The notes under the pieces: generated by a model
What the model saw: the letters and a program-made list of their open reading frames with translations, nothing else
Database searches by the model: none
What the model was told of the DNA's origin: nothing
Part shown: positions 5,115 to 29,723 of the stretch, piece by piece
How the letters are laid out: the number at the start of each line of letters is the position of its first letter
Numbering within the stretch: the first letter of the stretch is position 1
Source: an uncultured Candidatus Saccharibacteria bacterium
GTDB lineage: Bacteria; Patescibacteriota; Saccharimonadia; Saccharimonadales; CAZDBS01
Assembly: GCA_964635445.1 (NCBI GenBank)
Contig: CAZWNK010000001.1
Coordinates: 3,422-67,421, forward strand
Length of the DNA stretch: 64,000 nucleotides
Direction: 5' to 3'
Made by a program: the position numbers and the translations under genes

Positions 5115-8100
5115 TTTCGTTAGCTATTACGTCATCCGTCACATCATCTGGCAATCCAGAATCACCTGCGTCATCATCGAGTACGAAGTCATCGTTGACG
5201 ATGCCCGCGCTGACACCAACTGCCTGTTGATCATCTGGCATATCGACACCTGCTGGGTGTGTTGCTTCATTGTGGATGTTTTCGGCGAGAAGTTTCTCGG
5301 CGTCTATCGCTGCTTGACCATGCTGGTCAACAAGATCGACTTTGAGGCTGAGGCCTTGAAGTTCCTTCACGAGCACGTTGAACGACTCAGGAACCTGCGG
5401 ACCCTGAATATCAGTGCCTTTGATGATCGACTCATACGCCTTGGAGCGTCCGTATACATCGTCGGACTTGAGTGTCAGCATCTCTTGAAGTGTATATGCA
5501 GCACCGTATGCTTCGAGTGCCCATACCTCCATCTCTCCGAAGCGTTGACCACCGTTTTGCGCCTTACCACCGAGAGGTTGCTGTGTGACCATCGTGTATG
5601 GTCCAGTTGAGCGGGCATGAATCTTGTCTGCAATCATGTGATGCAGTTTGATCATGTACATGTTGCCGACTGTCGTTCGTTCAGCGAACGGTTCACCGGT
5701 ACGGCCGTCATAGAGTTGTGCCTTACCATCGGTATCACGACCTGCTTCTGCGAGCAGCTCTTTGATCTTCTCAGTTGAGACGCCATTAAATGGTTCTGTG
5801 ACAACTTTCATACCAAGAGCACGTGCAGCCATACCCAAGTGGGTTTCAAATAGCTGACCGATATTCATACGAGATGGCACACCAAGCGGGTTCAAAATGA
5901 CATCAACTGGTGTCCCGTCAGCCAAGAATGGCATATCTTCTACTGGTAAAATTCGAGCGACGACACCTTTGTTTCCGTGACGTCCAGCAAGCTTATCGCC
6001 AACTTGGACTTTGCGCATCTGAGCGACAAACACCTGGATCTGCATGATGACACCAGCTTTGAGCTCATGACCATTTTCTCGAGAGAAAATTTTCACGCCC
6101 ACGACCTTGCCATGCTTCCCGTTACTCATACGCTGAGAGGTGTCACGAACATCCTTAGCTTTTTCGCCAAAGATAGCGCGAAGCAGTCGCTCTTCACTTG
6201 AGAGCTCTTGTTCACCTTTTGGCGTGATTTTTCCGACGAGAATATCACCCGGATGCACCTCGGCACCGATGCGAACAATACCGTTCTCATCAAGATGTCG
6301 AAGGCTTTCTTCTGAGACATTTGGGATATCTGCAGTGACGACTTCAGGTCCAAGCTTGGTTTCGCGAACTTCAGTCATATAGTCGACGATGTGGATTGAG
6401 GTAAGCTCATCGTCCTGAACGATTCGTTGCGACAAGATGATGGAGTCTTCGTAGTTGTAACCACCCCATGGCATGAAGGCGACAATAAAGTCTTTGCCAA
6501 GTGCAAGCTCACCATTTTCAATCGACATACCATCGATCAAGACATCGCCTTTTTTGACCTTTTGGCCTGTTTCGACGACAACTTTCTGATTGATACATGA
6601 ACCTTCGTTGCTTCGGATGAAGTGCATCGGCGTGTATTTGACATCGCCATTTTTGGTACGCAGGACTACTTCTCGTCCTTCGGCCTTGACTACCTCACCA
6701 TCTGTTTCGGCATAGACTGCTTGGCCTGAGTTACGCGCAGTGACCTCTTCCATACCAGTACCGACGATTGGTGCTGTAGGACGAAGGAGTGGTACGGCCT
6801 GTTTCTGCATGTTCGAACCGGTCAGAGCACGGTCCACACGGTCCTTCTCGATGTATGGAACAAGCGCAGCAGTTGAGCCCAAAATCTGAAGATTGGAGGC
6901 GTCCATGTGCGTTACTTGGTCCGTATCAACCTGTCCAGGGCGGAGTTTGATACGAGCACTGACACGAGATTCGACAAAAGAGCCGTCATCTTTTAGCTGA
7001 TTACCAGCTCCTGCGATGACAGCATTTTCTTCTGCTGCTGCATCGAGATACTCGATCTCGCCAGTTACTTTGCCTTTGACAACCTTGCGATATGGCGATT
7101 CGACAAATCCATATTCATTGATACGAGCATAACTACCGAGATTGAGCACGAGACCGATGTTTGGTCCTTCTGGTGTTTCTACGGCGCAGATTCGACCATA
7201 GTGTGTGGCGTGAGCGTCACGAACCTCAAATCCGGCTCGTTCTCGTGAGAGACCACCTGGACCAAGTGAGCTAAGACGTCGTTTGTGCGAGAGCTCAGAG
7301 ATTGGGTTGGTCTGCTCCATGAACTGACTCAGCTGCGAGCTAGCAAAAAACTCTCGAACTGCTGCGACAATCGGTCGAGCATTGATGAGCTGGCCTGGTG
7401 TGACAGTTTCGATATCACTCATCGACATGCGATCTTTTGCATTGCGCTCCATGCGGAGGAGTCCGATACGGAATTGTCGCTGTACGAGTTCGCCAACGAG
7501 TTTGACGCGGCGATTAGCGAGACTGTCGATATCATCAGGTTCTTCTTGGGTATTATTCAGTCGGATGATTTCAGCAATGATCGCTTTGAGATCGTCGAGT
7601 CGCATAACTCGATTTTCTGTAGTATTTGGCACATCTAGTGCGAGTCGCTTGTTGATCTTATAACGACCGACTCGAGAGAAGTCGAAACGCTTGAAGTTGA
7701 AGAACATGTTTTCGATAAGGCTACGAGCGTTATCGACAGTTGCGAGATCACCAGGTCGGAGACGACGATAGACTTCGATCAAAGCATCGCTGTTACCTTT
7801 TGATGGATCCTTTTCGATAGTTGCGTTGATGTACGAGACTTCGCCGGTATCAACGTCTTTGAATAGTTCTGTGAGCGCAGTATTTGTGCTAACACCGAGC
7901 GCGCGGAGTAGCGTAGTGACCGGGATTTTGCGTCGTCGGTCGATTTTGACATACATAGCGCCATTGGATGAGGTCTCAAACTCCAACCATGCACCACGGC
8001 CAGGAATTACCTTCGCCCCGTAGAGCAAACGTGAACCGCTCGCCTCAGCAGTGAAAAATACTCCTGGGCTACGGATCAACTGAGACACGACTACACGATC

Positions 8101-8816: not shown

Positions 8817-9464
8817 CTAACGATTTGCGATAACTTTGTCTACGAGACCATATGTCTTCGCTTCATCAGCGTCAAACCATCGGTCACGTTCCATATCGTC
8901 ATGGATTTTACTGACTTTTTGACCGGTATTTTTAGCCATGATCTCTTCCATGCGGCGCTTCAACTTCGTCATTTGCTCGAGCGTAATTTCCATATCCGTG
9001 ATTTGTCCTTGAGTGCCTGCGTGCGGCTGATGAATCATGACCTTGGAGTTGGGCAGTGCAAGTCGCTTACCTTTGGCACCGGAACTAAGTAAAAATGCTG
9101 CAGCACTTGCAGCCATACCGATAGCAACTGTATTCACATCTGATTTGATGTAATTCATGACGTCGTAGATGGCCAAAGAGTCATAGACACTACCACCGGG
9201 ACTATTGATATACATGAAAATATCTTTCTTGGGGTCTTCGTACTCAAGATGCAAGAGTTGGGCTACGATGAGGTTTGCTGTGTGTTCGTTGACTTGATCG
9301 CCGAGGAATATGATTCGCTCTTTGAGCAATCGTGAATAGATATCGTAGGCGCGTTCGACTCGCCCATCTGATTCGATAACTGTTGGCACTAGTATAGAAC
9401 TTTTCGGATCTTTCATATCACTACCATTTGTATTCATGAGATTCCCCTCTAATAATTGCACCAA
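8817..9464 (-). CDS. clpP: ATP-dependent Clp protease proteolytic subunit
   Basis: 215 aa with ClpP family similarity, including the MIHQPHAG and [11 protein letters not shown] regions of the active-site Ser/His environment. Confidence 0.93.
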
Positions 9465-9477
9465 TCACTATATAGAA

Positions 9478-9504
9478 TTAGCACTCTAATGTCTAGAGTG
9501 CTAA
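9478..9504 (-). promoter_or_regulatory. CIRCE operator (HrcA-type), TTAGCACTC-N9-GAGTGCTAA, about 25 nt upstream of the clpP ATG
   Basis: The sequence ttagcactc taatgtcta gagtgctaa matches the CIRCE consensus exactly (9-9-9). Confidence 0.7.
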
Positions 9505-9592
9505 TTCACTCGCGATGCTCGTTCATAGGAAGAGGCGAATCCTCCTCCTATCCCTCAGCTGAAGCTTCGGTGTTCTCCTCCCCACTTGAGAC
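9505..9592 (-). repeat. Conserved structured leader module, copy A (GGGGAGGAGAACACCG box plus 10-bp hairpin at 9526-9550), between terminator and CIRCE
   Basis: Homologous to copies at 29565-29671 and 10081-10140. The hairpin taggaggagg/cctcttccta is read on the minus strand, with a G-U pair. Stem sequences differ between copies with compensatory changes. Confidence 0.5.
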
Positions 9593-9619
9593 AATAACTC
9601 GAAATAAATTCGAGTTATT
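9593..9619 (-). terminator. Rho-independent terminator after ORF116 (AATAACTCGA-ataaa-TCGAGTTATT)
   Basis: Perfect 10-bp stem flanked by A/T runs, 17 nt downstream of the ORF116 stop on the minus strand. Confidence 0.55.
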
Positions 9620-9635
9620 GTAATTTGTTTTAATT

Positions 9636-9986
9636 CTACGCAACTATTGATTCAGTATCACTCTCTTTGGTGTGTATACCGAAGAGTTCAGCTGCTCGTG
9701 CATCAACGATAAGCATGTCTAGCTCGTCGTCGCCTTCTCTATGAACGCAGGTTTGTAGAAGTGCTTTTACGGTTTCCGGTTCTATAACAAGTTGCTCTGT
9801 CTGTGATGGCGTTAGATTTCCGTTTTTATCAACTTTTTTTCTAACAGCTTCGAATACTGCCGATGCGATCGAGGCCTCGTACATTGTAGATCGGAGAGAC
9901 AGGAGTTCAGTGGCGGCACGTATTTGTGATGGGGTTTCAAGAACTCCGCCTTGGATACGGTCATATTGGTCAAATAAAATATTCAT
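9636..9986 (-). CDS. hypothetical protein (116 aa), flanked by inverted copies of the structured module
   Basis: ORF between clpP and tig with no recognisable family. Bracketed by module copies A and C in inverted orientation. Confidence 0.55.
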   Translation of the reverse strand: MNILFDQYDRIQGGVLETPSQIRAATELLSLRSTMYEASIASAVFEAVRKKVDKNGNLTPSQTEQLVIEPETVKALLQTCVHREGDDELDMLIVDARAAELFGIHTKESDTESIVA

Positions 9987-10042
9987 ATCTTGCTTTTAGC
10001 ACAGATTGTAACCAGATGTAAAGCCTCGCAATAAACCGACGA

Positions 10043-10073
10043 CTAAGATATTGGATTCACTCCAATATCTTAG
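10043..10073. repeat. Perfect 13-bp stem hairpin (CTAAGATATTGGA-ttcac-TCCAATATCTTAG)
   Basis: Seen directly in the sequence. Abuts module copy C. Confidence 0.5.
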
Positions 10074-10080
10074 ATTCCTT

Positions 10081-10140
10081 TGGGGAGGAGAACACCGGAG
10101 CGCAGCGAAGGGATAAGAGGAGGATTCACCTCCTCTTATG
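10081..10140 (+). repeat. Conserved structured module, copy C (plus orientation; TGGGGAGGAGAACACCG box plus 11-bp hairpin at 10113-10139), immediately 3' of tig
   Basis: Same module as copies A and B in opposite orientation, with no CIRCE. Hairpin ataagaggagg/cctcctcttat is perfect. Confidence 0.5.
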
Positions 10141-10150
10141 AGTGAGTAGA

Positions 10151-11440
10151 TTATGCTTTTGCATAATCTATGAGACGGGCAAGTGTTTTCTCGCTCATCA
10201 TCTGGCTCATGATATTGCGACGAGCTTCGGATTTGTCGAGTTCGGCTTGCATCGCTGGGTCGGACGCATACTGTCCTTTGAGAAGCTGGATTCGGATTTC
10301 CAGTTCTTCTGGCGTGATCTCGATTTTCTCTTTTTCGGAGATCTCGCTCAGGACGATGCCGGTTTTGACTCGTCGTTCAGCTTCTGGTCGCAGTTCCTTC
10401 TCCTTGAGTTCTTCTTCATCTTTGTATCCAGCTTGGGTTAAGTACTCACTGATTGTCATGCCTCGGTAAACGAGATTCTGCTTGAAATCAACAAGTGCTC
10501 TTTCTAGTTGCTCCCTGACTAGGACTTCTGGAAGTGCGGCTTTACTTTTATCGACAATTTCGCTCAAGAGTTCGTTTTCATAGGTATTCTGAGCTCGCGA
10601 TTGCTTCTCGTGCTCGAGTTGAGTTTTGATATCTTTACGAAGCTCAGCCACAGATTTGAACGGGCCAGACTTGGCGGCAAAGTCGGCGTCCACTTTAGGC
10701 AATACGACTTCTTGGACTTTATTGACTGTGACTGTGAAATCTACCTTGACTCCCGCGAGAGGCTTGTGTCCATAATCTTTCGGAAAGGTGACTTTAAACG
10801 TCTTCACTTCGCCTGCTTTCATACCGACAACATTCTCTTCAAACCCTGGGATAAACGTATTAGATCCAAGTACAAGCGGATATTCTTTGCCACTTGCTCC
10901 CGCAACCGCTTCACCTTTGGCGTCTTTACCATCAAAATCAATCATGACTTGATCGCCATCTTTGGATGCACGGTCGACATCTTTTTTCTCACTCATTCGA
11001 AGTCGGAGATTTTCGATAACGTCATCGACATCTTTGTCATCAACCGGTTCGACTTTAGGTGATTTTTTGATCTTCGTATAGTCTGGCAACGAGACACTAC
11101 CAACCACCTGCACCACAGCCACGAACGAAAGAGTCGTAAATGGCACAAATGCACTCAGTGTGACATCAGGCCGATCGATCGGTTTAAGCTTTTCTTGGAT
11201 CGCCGCATCCATGTAGAGACGGCTGATCGTATCTTCTAAAAATTCTGTTTGCAAGACATTTTGATCGACACTCTTCTCGACCATCGCTATCGGCGCTTTG
11301 CCTTTACGAAACCCGCCAACTTTCAGGTCTTTTGCGAGTCGCTGGAGTGTCTTCTGTTTGAAATGCTCGAGTTCATTGCTATCGGCTGTGATCTCTAGTT
11401 TGATTTCTGTCTCAGATGTATTGGTTCTCTTGATTTGCAT
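10151..11440 (-). CDS. tig: trigger factor
   Basis: 429 aa with trigger-factor N-terminal ribosome-binding region, a PPIase-like middle and C-terminal domain. A hairpin at 10147-10170 overlaps the stop. Confidence 0.9.
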   Translation of the reverse strand: MQIKRTNTSETEIKLEITADSNELEHFKQKTLQRLAKDLKVGGFRKGKAPIAMVEKSVDQNVLQTEFLEDTISRLYMDAAIQEKLKPIDRPDVTLSAFVPFTTLSFVAVVQVVGSVSLPDYTKIKKSPKVEPVDDKDVDDVIENLRLRMSEKKDVDRASKDGDQVMIDFDGKDAKGEAVAGASGKEYPLVLGSNTFIPGFEENVVGMKAGEVKTFKVTFPKDYGHKPLAGVKVDFTVTVNKVQEVVLPKVDADFAAKSGPFKSVAELRKDIKTQLEHEKQSRAQNTYENELLSEIVDKSKAALPEVLVREQLERALVDFKQNLVYRGMTISEYLTQAGYKDEEELKEKELRPEAERRVKTGIVLSEISEKEKIEITPEELEIRIQLLKGQYASDPAMQAELDKSEARRNIMSQMMSEKTLARLIDYAKA

Positions 11441-14104: not shown

Positions 14105-14898
14105 GATGATGCTGATGTATATCGTTTAAGACTAGCGCGCCATAGTCGTCGTTGCAAGAAATAAGCCAAGCTAAGCGCCATAATAGCCCAGGGCAGAACG
14201 TTCATAATTGATAGTTTGCCTATCATTATGGCAGTACTGACATTGGCAACTAGAAAACCTGGCATAAAGAATATGAGGAACTTTCGAAGCGGCCCTTGGA
14301 TTGCAGATTCCGGATACTCAGTACCACCTCCATTTACGCCCCATATTGCAAGTTTAAGAAAGGGATTGCCGCCACTTTCCTGCCAAAACGCGAGCAAAGC
14401 TGTGGTGAAGAGATACAGTAAATCCAAAACAAAGCCCAATAAGAGAATTATCATTCCTAGGACTACGTTTCGCAAAGTTATATGGAGACTCCCCCAATTG
14501 ATATCCCATATGACGAGCAATATCGCTACCCCGTCCCGTACCATATAAACTGGGCTAAAGCTATTTATCAACAGATATAGCTTCCGTGGCAATGGTTTCA
14601 GCAACACAAGATCCCAACTGCCATCATTAATCATAATCGATAGCGCACCCAGTGAATCGCTAAACGGACCTACAGCATAAAGCGAAAGCTGCAGCAATAA
14701 CATGATGAGTAATATGTCGTTCAAAGTGTATCCAGCTACAGTCCCTATCTCGCGGAATGTGAGATGCAAGACTACGAGATATGAAAGTGTATAGAAAATT
14801 GTCGAAAAAAAGTTTGCCCAATTTTCACCAAAATATGCAAGGTTTTGCTTGGTGTTATACGAAATGATAGCTAGAACTAACTTTAAGTTTTTTCTCAT
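14101..14898 (-). CDS. ABC-2 family transporter permease (about 6 TM)
   Basis: Polytopic hydrophobic 265-aa protein translationally coupled to the ABC ATPase. Confidence 0.7.
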   Translation of the reverse strand: MRKNLKLVLAIISYNTKQNLAYFGENWANFFSTIFYTLSYLVVLHLTFREIGTVAGYTLNDILLIMLLLQLSLYAVGPFSDSLGALSIMINDGSWDLVLLKPLPRKLYLLINSFSPVYMVRDGVAILLVIWDINWGSLHITLRNVVLGMIILLLGFVLDLLYLFTTALLAFWQESGGNPFLKLAIWGVNGGGTEYPESAIQGPLRKFLIFFMPGFLVANVSTAIMIGKLSIMNVLPWAIMALSLAYFLQRRLWRASLKRYTSASS

Positions 14899-14899
14899 G

Positions 14900-15712
14900 T
14901 CAGATACCTACCGCCTCATATGAACGAAGCCCTCTCTTCCAGAAACGGAGACTGAGGTAAAAAATAGGCAGTGCCCATAACGTACCAAGCATCACGAGTC
15001 GTGAAGGTACTTCAACTCCCTGAAGCAATCGCACAGGTAAGTAGTATGTTGAAGCTGATGGCAATACTTCCAAAACCTTAACAACAGGGGCGGAAAGCAA
15101 AAATAATGGCACCCATTCTCCGCGGAAAACGCGGAGTACGTGAAGCAGAACATTTCTAAGTGATTTACCTTCTGTCGTATAGAACGTCAATGTTGAGAAA
15201 AATATGTTAAATGACAGATTGAGAATAAAAGCATTGACGAGCGCCACCCCTATGATCGCAGCTCTTGTAAGCGTCATGTGTGCGAATAACCCCTGGCTCA
15301 TCACGATGCCGATAATCAGCAGAACTACTGACCATATTTGTCCCATGACATACCCTGGCATTGTTTTCGCATACAACTGAACTAATGGACTACCGGGACG
15401 CGACAAAAGATAGTTCAATTGCCCAGTTTTAATATGCTTAGTAGACACAGACGACATCTGAGCATCACACAAGAAAAAGGCATAGAGAAACTCCGCTATG
15501 AAAAAGTAACTGATTATTTCACTAAGGGGTGTGGAGGATAGATTGCTGTGACGTACAACAATCGACCAGAACAGAATTCTAAAACCTAATCCCCAGATAT
15601 AATGTAAAAGCGATCCGAAAAGCGTAAGAGGATAGCGAGTCAAAATTTTGAGCTGATACCACCAAGAGATCCAAACAAGACGGTTAAACCGCCGCACGTC
15701 AGCAAAATACAT
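14900..15712 (-). CDS. ABC-2 family transporter permease (second subunit)
   Basis: 270-aa polytopic membrane protein 1 nt upstream of the first permease. Confidence 0.7.
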   Translation of the reverse strand: MYFADVRRFNRLVWISWWYQLKILTRYPLTLFGSLLHYIWGLGFRILFWSIVVRHSNLSSTPLSEIISYFFIAEFLYAFFLCDAQMSSVSTKHIKTGQLNYLLSRPGSPLVQLYAKTMPGYVMGQIWSVVLLIIGIVMSQGLFAHMTLTRAAIIGVALVNAFILNLSFNIFFSTLTFYTTEGKSLRNVLLHVLRVFRGEWVPLFLLSAPVVKVLEVLPSASTYYLPVRLLQGVEVPSRLVMLGTLWALPIFYLSLRFWKRGLRSYEAVGI

Positions 15713-15736: not shown

Positions 15737-16255
15737 TCATAGCTGGGTGATAAATGTTCGAACAGCTTCCTCTGCTAGTCGTTGACGATTCGAGAAGTTT
15801 TCGTCTGTAATGCCCAACCCAGTATCTGCTTGGTGGTCAGTGAGGAATTTCTGATGATCCTCTGACCAAGATTTTACGTACTCTTCTGGTGGATGGTATT
15901 CTTTCGCATTTTGTAGCTTCGCGATAAATTCATCGCTTAGATCCATCGATATGACGAATACTCTATAGCCCTTTTCTTCGGCCAACTTCTTTATATCATC
16001 CATTCGGCGATCGACACTCGTATCGTAGATAAAACTAGACTTCTTGTCGAAAAGGATGTCAGCTCGTTCATCTCGTAGAGCTTCAAACTTCTCTTGGTTG
16101 AGGTAAGCTTCAAGCGTGTCTTCGTGTACTTCGACACGGATGACATTATTACTAAGTACTGGTAGGTCAAACACGAGCGACAATCGCATGGCGATTGCAC
16201 TTTTACCCGACCCTGGAACTCCTGCAAATGTGACGAGAAATGGTTTACGATTCAT
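15737..16255 (-). CDS. P-loop NTPase / small-molecule kinase-like protein (AAA_33/zeta-toxin-like fold)
   Basis: Walker A GVPGSGKS at residues 11-18 in a 172-aa protein, leading the ABC-2 operon. Confidence 0.55.
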   Translation of the reverse strand: MNRKPFLVTFAGVPGSGKSAIAMRLSLVFDLPVLSNNVIRVEVHEDTLEAYLNQEKFEALRDERADILFDKKSSFIYDTSVDRRMDDIKKLAEEKGYRVFVISMDLSDEFIAKLQNAKEYHPPEEYVKSWSEDHQKFLTDHQADTGLGITDENFSNRQRLAEEAVRTFITQL

Positions 16256-25999: not shown

Positions 26000-26971
26000 T
26001 TATTTTGATTCGAGAGGTTGATATTTGCTGTCGATCGTCTGAGTCAATTCTTTTTGGGTGACCACGATTGCATTGCGCTCTTTGACGATTGCATTGTATT
26101 GATTGATAAGTGAGTTGAGCGTATTTACGCCTGCGTTGAAAGCTCTCACTTTACTATTGAACAACGGTACTTGCGTATTGTACTGTGCATACCTCTTTTG
26201 GTTGAGATTATCGTCCATCGATGCTCGCATAGTATTGAGTGAGGCACGTTGCTGTTCAAGTGATGTTTGTTGTAAATCGATCTGAGCTTTGAGACTCTCG
26301 ATTTGCGTGTCATACAAAGCAACTTTCTTTTGTAAGTCAGTAAACACCGACTCATACTGATCACTCAGTCGAACGACCAGACTTCGATCAGTAAAATACT
26401 TCTTGTAGTGAGCTTCCAGATCAGGTCCGATATTCTTGACTTCTGTTCCCAATATCGAATGAAGTTCATTCGGAACGGACGAGGGGTCATCTTTCTGATA
26501 CGTTGCAACAAGACTTTTGAGATGATCATCCGTAGACGCGGCATACGCTGCCATGACGAGCGTATCTATTCGATCACGCTCGCGTTTGGACATGCGCGCA
26601 TACACAGCATGCAGGGTCTCGTGCGCTATGGTTACTTCTTCTACACCACTTAAACGTGGGTCATCAACCTTCAGTATATATACTCGGCTACCCGTATAGC
26701 ACCCGAGCACAATAGTCTTTTCTTCGACAGGGCAATCGTTGTTGAAGCTCGATTTTTCGTCTATTTGCGGCTTGCTAGCGAAAAGGATTCGTTGACTAGA
26801 GGAGGATAGACCAGCACGACTCACAAGCCCTGCGACAGCACTGGACGGCTGGTAGTTCCGTGTGACTATCCAGTCATGGACCGCATAGCGATTGGTGATC
26901 ACGACAAAGCCTATGGCTATAATTGCCACGGACAATACACCCGACACAACCCGCTTTGTCACACGACTCAT
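26000..26971 (-). CDS. membrane-anchored hypothetical protein with an HExxH motif (IAHETLHAVY) and a C-terminal coiled coil
   Basis: 323 aa with a single N-terminal TM segment, an HETLH putative zinc-binding motif and a Q/L-rich heptad region. Inserted between clpC and radA. Confidence 0.5.
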   Translation of the reverse strand: MSRVTKRVVSGVLSVAIIAIGFVVITNRYAVHDWIVTRNYQPSSAVAGLVSRAGLSSSSQRILFASKPQIDEKSSFNNDCPVEEKTIVLGCYTGSRVYILKVDDPRLSGVEEVTIAHETLHAVYARMSKRERDRIDTLVMAAYAASTDDHLKSLVATYQKDDPSSVPNELHSILGTEVKNIGPDLEAHYKKYFTDRSLVVRLSDQYESVFTDLQKKVALYDTQIESLKAQIDLQQTSLEQQRASLNTMRASMDDNLNQKRYAQYNTQVPLFNSKVRAFNAGVNTLNSLINQYNAIVKERNAIVVTQKELTQTIDSKYQPLESK

Positions 26972-26998: not shown

Positions 26999-29491
26999 CT
27001 ATTCACTGACGAGTTTGAACGAGAGTTTGTCACTCTTAGCATCGACGGCGATTGTATCGCCTTTTTTATAGGTTCCTGACAATAGGCCATCAGCGATTTC
27101 GTCTTCGAGTTTGTCTTGTATGATACGGCGCAGTGGTCGGACGCCATTCTGCGCGTCGTACCCATGATCAATCAGATAGCGCTTGACGCTTGGTGTGACA
27201 TGGAGTGCCAGACCTGTCTTGCGTAAACGGTCACTAAGTTCTTTGAGCTGAAGCTCGAGAATACTTTCGGCATTTTTCTTAGTCAATGCGCGGAAAACGA
27301 TGATTTTGTCAATACGGTTTATGAGCTCTGGGCGCATCAACTTCTTCACCTCATCCATTACCTTGTCGGTATTCGTGTTGTGCATGGATTCAAGATCTTT
27401 GGCATCATCTTTGGTTGTCGCACTGAAGCCGAGCGTGGCTTCTTTCTGAAGTTTCTGTGCTCCGATGTTGCTAGTCATGATGATGACTGTATTCGTGAAA
27501 TCAACACGACGGCCTTTAGCATCTGTGAGGTATCCGTCTTCAAGCATCTGCAGAAGGATGTTGAATACTTCAGGATGAGCTTTTTCGATTTCATCGAAAA
27601 GTACAAGCGAATACGGTTGTCGTCTGACTTTTTCTGTCAACTGACCTGCATCTTCATAGCCGACATAGCCAGCTGGAGCCCCAACAAGACGCGACACAGT
27701 GTGGCGCTCACCAAACTCACTCATATCAATTTTGACAAGAGATTTCTCACTACCAAAATATTCACGAGCCAGGACTCGTGCCAGCTCTGTTTTACCGACA
27801 CCAGTAGGTCCGAGAAATATAAACGAACCAATCGGACGACGCGCATCACTGATACCTGAACGGTTTCGACGAATCGCACGCGCCACGGCCGCGACAGCTT
27901 CATCCTGACCCATGACATGTGCTCCTAAAAGTTTTTCGAGTCCCAATAGAGCCTTGGCTTCTGTCTTCACAACTTTCGACACCGGCACGCCAGTCATCGT
28001 AGCGACAACATGCGCAATGTCATCACTCGTCAAAGCAAGGTCAGTCGTCTCACTTTCCGATGTTTTCAGTGCTTCGAGTTGCTTATTGATCTGACTCATG
28101 CGAGTTTTGTATTTCGCAGCCTTTTCGTAGTCCTCGGCATCAACAGCTTCTTCCATGCGAGCCGTGACACTTCGGAGTTCCTTTTGAAGTTTGCGTTGTT
28201 CGGGTTTTACTTTATGGCGCTCAATCCGTACATGAGATGCCGCCTCATCGATCAGGTCGATGGCTTTATCAGGCATGTAACGGTCATTGACATACCGTTT
28301 TGCCATCAATACAGCATCTTCGATGACTTCATCCGAGATCTTCACACCGTGATGCGACTCATATTGCTTCTTAAGCCCTTTGAGAATGGCAATTGTCTCC
28401 TGAACAGTAGTCTCAGGGACGACAACGGGCTGAAAACGACGTTCCAGGGCGACATCTTTCTCTACATATTTGCGATACTCGTCCATAGTGGTCGCCCCGA
28501 TGACGCGCATCTTGCCACGAGCCAGCGCAGGTTTGAGTATGTTGCCAGCATCGATAGAACCTTCGGCCGCTCCAGCACCCACGATTAAGTGTAGCTCGTC
28601 GATAAACACGATGATATTGGGGTCGCTGACGATTTCATCCATGACTTTTTTGAGACGTTCTTCAAATTCGCCACGATATTTCGTACCCGCCACCATGCCA
28701 GCAAGATCCAACATCACGACGCGTTTCTCCAATAACACATCAGGCACATCCTCTTGAACAATACGTTGCGCGAGTCCCTCGACGATGGCTGTTTTACCGA
28801 CCCCAGGTTCACCGATGAGCACTGGATTGTTTTTTGTACGTCGACCTAGAATTGTCACCATTCGTTTGATCTGAGGTTCACGACCGACAACAGGATCGAG
28901 TTCACCCATGCGAGCTTTTTCAGTCAGGTCAGTGCCAAAATAGTCGAGTGCACTACCACGCTTCTTGCCTTTGCGCTTTGTACGAGTCGAACTTTCATCA
29001 TCATCTTGTTGTCGATTGAGATACTGCTCCAATTCATTCATGATGGAGTCCACATTGACATTCATCTCGTATAGCAACTGAGTGCCTCGCGCGTTTTTCT
29101 GGCTGAGTAGCCCGTAGAGGATGTGCTCGGTACCGCAATAATCTTGACTGTATTCTTGAGCGATATCCCAACTCATTTTAAGTGTCAGTTTGGCTGTCTC
29201 GCTCAACCCTTTACTGCCGAGATTGATGACCAGTGTCTTTGGCGTCATATTTAGTGCCATCCGCGCACGATCAATAGAAACACCGTTCGTTTGCAATATC
29301 TTCGATCCGATTGAGCCATCTTGAGCCAAGACACCGAGTAAAAGGTGCTCCGTCCCGATGTATGCGGAACCGAAGCTCCGCGCTATGGCGTCAGCATGCT
29401 GCAAACTCGCCCGAGCATTATCGGTAAGGTGTCGTATAAAATCTGCAAATTCTTGATAGTCTTCTGGCATAAAATCCCACTTTCTACCCAT
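26999..29491 (-). CDS. clpC: ATP-dependent Clp protease ATP-binding subunit ClpC (class III two-AAA+ unfoldase)
   Basis: Clp_N repeats and two AAA+ modules (GEPGVGKT; GPTGVGKT) with a sensor and C-terminal D2-small domain. True start may be the second Met (MPEDYQEF). Confidence 0.9.
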
Positions 29492-29537
29492 CCAAGTTAG
29501 CGGTTTTATTTCCTGGGATACACCTATGATACTAAAA

Positions 29538-29564
29538 CTAGCACTCTCAATGCAAGAGTGCTAA
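29538..29564 (-). promoter_or_regulatory. CIRCE-like operator (CTAGCACTC-N9-GAGTGCTAA) upstream of clpC
   Basis: 17 of 18 consensus positions match, with exact N9 spacing, about 50-70 nt upstream of the clpC start. Confidence 0.65.
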
Positions 29565-29671
29565 ACGCTATGCTGACGCTGGCTTATGAGAAGAGGTGAT
29601 TCCTCTTCTCATCCCTCTCCGCTTCCACTTACAGCTGCAGCGGATTCGGTGCTCTTCTCCCCAAATGAGAC
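29565..29671 (-). repeat. Conserved structured leader module, copy B (GGGGAGAAGAGCACCG box plus perfect 10-bp hairpin at 29587-29611)
   Basis: Same order as copy A: terminator, module, CIRCE, clp gene. Stem tgagaagagg/cctcttctca has two compensatory pair changes relative to copy A. Confidence 0.5.
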
Positions 29672-29699
29672 AAAAAGACCGGAATAAATCCGGCTTTTT
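29672..29699 (-). terminator. Rho-independent terminator after nusA (AAAAAGCCGGA-tttat-TCCGGCTTTTT)
   Basis: Perfect stem with a T-tract, 24 nt downstream of the nusA stop. Confidence 0.6.
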
Positions 29700-29723
29700 G
29701 TAAGTTTAACTAGCCACGAGCCG

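Follow-up and report, generated by a model that had tools for sequence, protein, structure and literature searches.

Putative HrcA operators (CIRCE) within the predicted core promoters of clpP and clpC in a Saccharimonadales genome

We analyzed a 64-kb stretch of DNA (the window) that encodes the ClpP protease and the ClpC AAA+ protein. Both are minus-strand genes, and each has a CIRCE-type inverted repeat, the operator recognized by the HrcA repressor, upstream of its coding sequence. The genes and the two sites are as follows.

8817 to 9437, minus strand: clpP, 206 aa from an ATG at 9437, with GAGGGG before the ATG; Pfam family PF00574.
9478 to 9504, minus strand: clpP CIRCE, an exact 9-9-9 arrangement with its left arm at 9496-9504, spacer at 9487-9495, and right arm at 9478-9486.
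26000 to 26971, minus strand: 323-aa open reading frame (ORF) between clpC and radA.
26999 to 29470, minus strand: clpC, 823 aa from an ATG at 29470; an in-frame ATG at 29491 adds 7 aa.
29538 to 29564, minus strand: clpC CIRCE with one mismatch; its coding strand reads TTAGCACTC TTGCATTGA GAGTGCTAG.

The exact ClpP protein was called on 9 metagenome contigs, using the ATG at 9437. ClpC has the Pfam domains Clp_N, two AAA modules, UVR, and ClpB_D2-small. Among its homologues, one was identical (P0001, 823 aa, 100% identity to the window ClpC), one was 92% identical, and the next step down was at approximately 70%. The names given to homologues of ClpC, ClpP, and HrcA put the window in Candidatus Saccharimonadales (Saccharibacteria/TM7, Patescibacteria), and the exact proteins turned up on short metagenome contigs only. 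An earlier reading of this DNA, made from the sequence only, had described a Firmicute-like clpC-radA-yacL synteny. We confirmed the order as clpC, the 323-aa ORF, radA, and a PIN/TRAM gene that is yacL-like. The 323-aa ORF resembles a membrane anchor plus a coiled coil, and it is kept between clpC and radA in every relative whose downstream sequence extends far enough (L013, L016, L017, L020, L021, and L157). Its matches in Pfam and NCBIfam were all below threshold.

The upstream neighbor of clpC is nusA in the window and in L013, L017, and L021. It is an 84-aa or 106-aa ORF in L016 and L157, and in L020 it is a divergent 194-aa ORF with nusA beyond it. The ctsR-mcsA-mcsB genes were not found upstream of clpC in the window or in the loci of its relatives. 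The sequence-only reading had reported them missing and had also seen no CtsR-type heptad repeats, and both observations were borne out: nusA stands upstream of the window clpC, and a search of the window for the tandem heptad (A/G)GTCAAA-N4-(A/G)GTCAAA gave 8 weak matches versus 6.4 expected, with none near clpP or clpC. The L016 locus, from the 92% relative, has three 84-aa genes without a Pfam match within 10 kb (6717-6971, 14698-14952, and 15773-16027). One of them takes the place of nusA upstream of clpC and of the hairpin-rich module described below. There is also a 1.5-kb gap without called genes at 5205-6717 in this locus.

A pattern search of the 64-kb window found an exact match to TTAGCACTC-N9-GAGTGCTAA at 9478-9504, with 18/18 arm positions matching, and a second site with one mismatch at 29538-29564. 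Therefore, both sites are as the sequence-only reading had described them. They were the only sites in the window when up to 3 mismatches were allowed. The chance expectation was approximately 0.05 sites, and 0 of 100 dinucleotide-preserving shuffles gave two. The clpP CIRCE was identical across 8 independent metagenome contigs and the clpC CIRCE across 3. The distance to clpP had been given as 25 nt, and this needed correction. We measured 40 nt to the clpP ATG (9437), or 13 nt to a TTG at 9464 if the longest ORF is used. For clpC, the distance is 67 nt with the start at 29470 and 46 nt with the start at 29491.

Both sites coincide with predicted promoter elements, which are listed here.

9490 to 9495, minus strand: predicted clpP -35-like element, TAGACA, the first 6 nt of the CIRCE spacer; it is in the same place in relatives.
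9467 to 9472, minus strand: predicted clpP -10-like element, TATAGT, 5 nt beyond the CIRCE right arm.
29550 to 29555, minus strand: predicted clpC -35-like element, TTGCAT, at the start of the CIRCE spacer, by reading of the sequence.
29526 to 29531, minus strand: predicted clpC -10-like element, TATCAT, 18 nt after the -35 and 6 nt beyond the CIRCE.

The coding-strand sequence of the clpP leader is TTAGCACTC TAGACATTA GAGTGCTAA ttcta TATAGT, followed by 29 nt that include GAGGGG and then by the ATG. A promoter scan called TAGACA-17-TATAGT across the clpP CIRCE, with 10/12 matches. The clpC leader reads TTAGCACTC TTGCATTGA GAGTGCTAG ttttag TATCAT, and its TTGCAT is weak (4/6 matches) and was not called by the consensus promoter scan. 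Counterparts of this hexamer (TTGACC, TTGACT, or TTGATA) are at the same position in L016, L017, L020, L021, and L157, and the TATCAT is also found in L016, L017, and L157. When 12 leaders were compared, a -35-like hexamer was at offset 0 of the CIRCE spacer in 10 of them, and the -10 matched 5/6 positions in 10 of them as well. The gap between the two elements was 16 to 18 nt. The predicted -10 lies 4 to 6 nt past the CIRCE right arm, which is itself inside the promoter spacer. With a -35 in the CIRCE spacer and a -10 just past the right arm, the operator is predicted to overlap the core promoter. Transcription would then start downstream of the CIRCE, so the CIRCE would act as DNA only and not in the mRNA.

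In several relatives, the predicted -10 ends only 6 to 7 nt before the ATG of clpP or hrcA (L025 9956-10003, L026 9957-10003, L028 9952-10003, and L151 9955-10003). This short distance implies leaderless clpP and hrcA mRNAs in those relatives. The window clpP, by contrast, has a leader of approximately 23 nt with GAGGGG.

For the comparison of orthologous clp leaders, loci were fetched by protein identity and not by motif. A CIRCE with at most 2 mismatches was present in every one, in 5/5 clpP lineages and 6/6 clpC lineages, down to approximately 70% protein identity. The clpP lineages were the window, L024 (94%), L025 (76%), L026/27 (74%), and L028-30 (73%), and the clpC lineages were the window, L016 (92%), L017 (70%), L020 (70%), L021 (71%), and L157. 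Outside the operator and the -10, leader sequence was not conserved among these relatives.

We also scanned metagenomes for AGCACTCTTGACNNNNGAGTGC, which gave at least 120 loci (L031-L150). This sample was selected by the motif, so the counts of downstream genes are not frequencies. The first downstream gene encoded HrcA at at least 35 loci, DnaK at at least 23, ClpC or ClpB at at least 13, ClpP at at least 12, a zinc-ribbon protein at at least 5, Hsp20 at at least 4, GroES at at least 3, and GroEL and DnaJ at at least 1 each. The HrcA, DnaK, Hsp20, GroES, and zinc-ribbon names were confirmed by Pfam on representatives. Of the DnaKs encoded behind a CIRCE, one matches a Candidatus Saccharibacteria protein exactly and another groups with DnaKs of Saccharimonadales. 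One such Hsp20 clusters with a Saccharibacteria protein. One such GroES is from a Patescibacteria metagenome-assembled genome (MAG; a phylum-level record). A second GroES comes from Anaerolineae, which shows that other lineages have the design as well.

The arrangement at the chaperone genes can be seen in a Saccharimonadales MAG with an 810-kb contig (L151). Its gene order is lepA ... hrcA-grpE-dnaK-x-dnaJ, with one CIRCE before hrcA (CTAGCACTC TTGACTGAT GAGTGCTAG) and one before dnaK (CTGGCACTC TTGACTCAT GAGTGCCAA). L103 has the same hrcA/dnaK arrangement with operators. The sequence-only reading had placed CIRCE at the clp genes instead of at chaperone genes. That part has to be given up, because in the Saccharimonadales MAG the operator also precedes hrcA-grpE and dnaK. 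Therefore, clpP and clpC extend the chaperone regulon without displacing its usual members.

Some leaders in this collection have further CIRCE-like sequences. Many dnaK leaders (such as L031, L054, L057, and L147) and some hrcA leaders (L067 and L076) have a second CIRCE-like half-site directly after the -10 (TTGGCACTC, TTGGCAATC, or TTAGCACTC), suggesting tandem operators. In L077 and L108, a second CIRCE-like palindrome with a longer, self-palindromic spacer lies approximately 190 nt upstream of the clpC CIRCE (for example, TGGCACTC TTGACGGCGAGTCAA AGTGCTAG). Five loci (L035, L038, L051, L078, and L113) have a CIRCE with TTGAC in its spacer before a Zn_ribbon_8 (FmdB-like) gene. These are on GC-rich contigs, probably from other phyla, and no -10 follows the site.

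An HrcA profile had no match among the six-frame ORFs of the 64-kb window, which agrees with the statement in the sequence-only reading that it contains no hrcA gene. Therefore, the presence of the repressor rests on relatives, and we looked for it at the level of the order Saccharimonadales. The lineage has a short HrcA of approximately 235 aa, found in records named Saccharimonadales, Saccharibacteria, and Patescibacteria (L103 2380-3081, L151 10001-10705, and at least 35 loci among L031-L150). An HrcA profile search returned close relatives that are 79 to 86% identical to the L103 HrcA and are named Candidatus Saccharimonadales, Candidatus Saccharibacteria, or Patescibacteria. Two representatives of the short HrcA passed the Pfam cutoffs for PF03444 (winged helix) and PF01628 (C-terminal). 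Against the NCBIfam equivalog TIGR00331, they scored 183.6 and 192.1 bits, just under the cutoff of 197.2, which explains their generic NCBI names, mostly "transcriptional regulator."

The short-HrcA profile aligned to Thermotoga maritima HrcA (1STZ, 338 aa) at residues 14-137 and 233-328. Compared with 1STZ, the short HrcA is without approximately 95 internal residues and does not have the full three-part architecture. The skipped segment is presumably more or less the inserted dimerizing domain. The winged-helix domain is kept (E = 4e-33 to 1STZ residues 14-137). An AF2 model of the short HrcA had a mean pLDDT of 50 and was confident only at residues 1-75, the winged helix, where pLDDT was approximately 64 to 91. 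The CIRCE that precedes hrcA in at least 35 loci is a signature of putative autoregulation.

These features of HrcA bear on whether the sites are still in use. The palindromes could be relics, or they could be bound by some other factor, if hrcA has been lost here or if the short HrcA no longer recognizes CIRCE. The lack of an hrcA match in the window fits this idea, as do the internal truncation of the lineage HrcA and its score below the equivalog cutoff. However, the exact 18/18 match and the conservation over approximately 30% protein divergence argue for ongoing selection. Also, the short HrcA retains the winged-helix domain, and CIRCE is found before hrcA itself at those 35 or more loci. 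We consider it improbable that the sites are relics or belong to another factor. The reading that we favor is that the two CIRCEs are functional HrcA operators in core promoters, repressing clpP and clpC, and we think this likely. The sequence-only reading had suggested that Clp proteolysis is wired into the HrcA regulon. At the level of the order Saccharimonadales, this is supported by the CIRCEs in clp leaders, the short HrcA, and the CIRCEs at hrcA-grpE and dnaK, and so is a predicted HrcA/CIRCE regulon that includes clpP and clpC and is without the CtsR system.

From established knowledge of HrcA and CIRCE, an HrcA dimer on the operator would cover the -35 and the spacer and so exclude RNA polymerase. 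When unfolded proteins build up, HrcA activity would be lost and clpP and clpC would be derepressed. They would be derepressed together with hrcA-grpE, dnaK-dnaJ, hsp20, and probably groES, a set of targets that is pooled over several genomes. In this genome-reduced lineage, a single repressor appears to cover what is divided between HrcA and CtsR in Firmicutes. In Bacillus subtilis, HrcA is inactivated by titration of the GroE chaperonin that keeps it active (Mogk 1997, as cited in PMC7737663).

The two clp leaders have more in common than the operator. They share approximately 115 to 140 nt beyond the CIRCE, with 74% identity across the aligned leaders. This module has the order H1 (a terminator-like hairpin), TTGTCTCA, TGGGGAG(G/A)AGA(A/G)CACCGAA, a variable H2, GAGGGAT, H3 (a 10- to 11-bp hairpin with compensatory changes), a linker, and the CIRCE. 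The window has three copies of it.

9505 to 9625, minus strand: module copy 1, with H1, TTGTCTCA, TGGGGAGGAGAACACCGAA, a small hairpin, GAGGGAT, H3, and the linker; it abuts the clpP CIRCE.
29565 to 29705, minus strand: module copy 2; it abuts the clpC CIRCE.
10040 to 10152, plus strand: module copy 3, in the opposite orientation to copy 1, with the tig stop (10151) and the ORF116 start (9986) on either side; it has an unrelated hairpin instead of a CIRCE.
9636 to 9986, minus strand: ORF116, 116 aa, bracketed by the inverted module copies 1 and 3.

Two further copies were found in relatives. The module is at the L016 clpC (6990-7104) despite the different upstream gene, and a diverged form is in L017 (9791-9916). 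It is absent from L157, in which ClpC is 89% identical to that of L017, and from all other relatives examined. An nhmmer search of the window and the collected loci found no copies beyond these five. A scan of genome contigs for the module pattern gave 4 chance matches, in GC-rich coding DNA of unrelated phyla, and scans of viral sequences for the module and ORF116 gave chance coding matches or nothing. Rfam in gathering mode found only tRNAs in the window, and in permissive mode all matches stayed below threshold.

H1 and H3, with their compensatory changes, hold on both strands, with the clp strand slightly favored (-29.7 versus -27.2 kcal/mol and approximately 7 versus 1 G-U cells). Because the clp promoter is predicted to be inside the CIRCE, the module would be upstream of the transcription start site. 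Only transcription that reads through H1, or that comes from the opposite strand, would include it, and for copies 1 and 2 a reading of the sequence shows no acceptable -35 on that opposite strand. We also considered a small peptide encoded after H3, but rejected it because only 3/5 copies have an ATG and the short ORFs lack conservation. In most relatives, the clp genes have a CIRCE but no module, and CIRCE is therefore independent of it. We regard the module as an apparently lineage-restricted structured repeat that is not needed for the interpretation of CIRCE. A bolder view is that it is an undescribed functional element of this Saccharimonadales genus, either a structured noncoding RNA or a small mobile repeat. 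It would consist of H1, TGGGGAGGAGAACACCG, H2, GAGGGAT, and H3, the two arms of which look like a Shine-Dalgarno sequence and its anti-Shine-Dalgarno partner. It would be physically coupled to HrcA promoters and would copy itself to new intergenic sites with or without the CIRCE-promoter cassette. We put this forward tentatively, as something that is possible and on balance unlikely.

Another reading is that CIRCE at the two clp sites mainly controls a divergent transcript, a small C/U-rich anti-Shine-Dalgarno RNA from the opposite strand that would read ...CCUCCUCC...AUCCCUC...CUCCUCCCC... and end in H1 plus a T-run. On that strand, all three copies give weak full-length matches to the ar14 family of Rfam (the "cuckoo" anti-Shine-Dalgarno small RNAs, RF02344), there are terminator-like hairpins with T-runs, and copy 3 is the 3' untranslated region of tig. 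However, the Rfam matches scored 19.7, 17.9, and 11.8 bits, far under the gathering score of 58.8. Copies 1 and 2 have no -35 on that strand, though promoters in this lineage are near consensus, and the G-U pairs favor the other strand. The retention of clp CIRCEs in most relatives, which have no module, also argues against it. We find a divergent small RNA as the main target quite doubtful.

ORF116 had no family match in Pfam or NCBIfam. It is absent from the tig-clpP interval of relatives, in which tig and clpP are either adjacent or split by an unrelated ORF on the opposite strand. The H1 ends of module copies 1 and 3 face ORF116 (region 9505-10152). Together with its flanking modules, ORF116 looks like an insertion or an inverted duplication. 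One might go further and take the CIRCE copies as nonfunctional passengers of a repeated or mobile module. The 64 kb contain three copies of it, not all in one orientation, copies 1 and 3 flank ORF116 as inverted repeats, and the linker by the L016 clpC CIRCE is closer to the window clpP copy than to the window clpC copy. This reading is very hard to credit when copy 3 is without a CIRCE, relatives without the module keep CIRCE at both genes, and each operator forms one unit with the -35 and -10 in its gene's own predicted promoter.

With the two CIRCEs taken as likely HrcA operators, the Saccharibacteria system can be compared with known ones. It is like the classical class I HrcA/CIRCE regulon in having the same 9-9-9 operator consensus, an HrcA-family winged-helix repressor, and, in the lineage, an hrcA-grpE-dnaK-dnaJ operon behind its own operator. 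It is unlike the classical regulon in that its putative targets include clpP and clpC, its operator overlaps the predicted -35 and promoter spacer, and its repressor is approximately 100 aa shorter. In 1994, Zuber and Schumann reportedly placed the B. subtilis CIRCE in the leader, past the transcription start and before the start codon.

In Firmicutes, clpP, clpC, and clpE are class III targets controlled by CtsR, and there is a ctsR-mcsA-mcsB-clpC operon. The CtsR regulon shares with the system described here the same target genes, the logic of a repressor relieved by stress, and a clpC-radA-yacL-like order. However, the clp genes of the window are without the heptad repeats, ctsR-mcsA-mcsB are missing upstream of clpC, and the operator is CIRCE. 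Chastanet and Msadek are said to have described, in 2003, dual control of clpP by CtsR and HrcA in Streptococcus salivarius. This is a precedent for clpP under HrcA control, but there CIRCE is beside a CtsR box, whereas here it is the sole recognizable operator.

Other bacteria differ in where CIRCE is found. In delta-proteobacteria, groESL is the only constant CIRCE member and clp genes are under sigma-32 (PMC545781). The nearest analogue is in Mollicutes, which are genome reduced and have HrcA as their one conserved stress regulator, with CIRCE before lon, clpB, pepA, and pip in addition to dnaK and groESL (PMC5138195 and PMC7737663). The likeness to the mollicutes Mycoplasma pneumoniae, Mycoplasma gallisepticum, and Spiroplasma melliferum is that genome reduction goes with proteases or AAA+ proteins under HrcA. 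The differences are that these belong to another phylum, that their protease targets are lon and clpB and not clpP or clpC, and that the embedded -35 geometry is not reported in the accessible parts of those two papers. A preprint on the TM7x transcriptome has changes in clpB and clpP without evidence of co-regulation with chaperones.

A literature search found nothing linking Saccharibacteria, or other Patescibacteria/CPR, to HrcA. These bacteria have tiny genomes and few recognizable regulators. Our result extends a well-known system that has a precedent in Mollicutes, and it is not a new mechanism. What it offers is a concrete and testable regulon for the order, a short HrcA with one operator-promoter design before hrcA-grpE, dnaK, hsp20, clpP, and clpC. 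In cultivable TM7 strains, these near-consensus promoters, each with its operator built in, could also be used as a cassette for heat-inducible expression. The lineage seems to have brought chaperones and proteases under a single circuit, a development parallel to that in Mollicutes, and regulatory consolidation would then have accompanied genome reduction independently for a second time.
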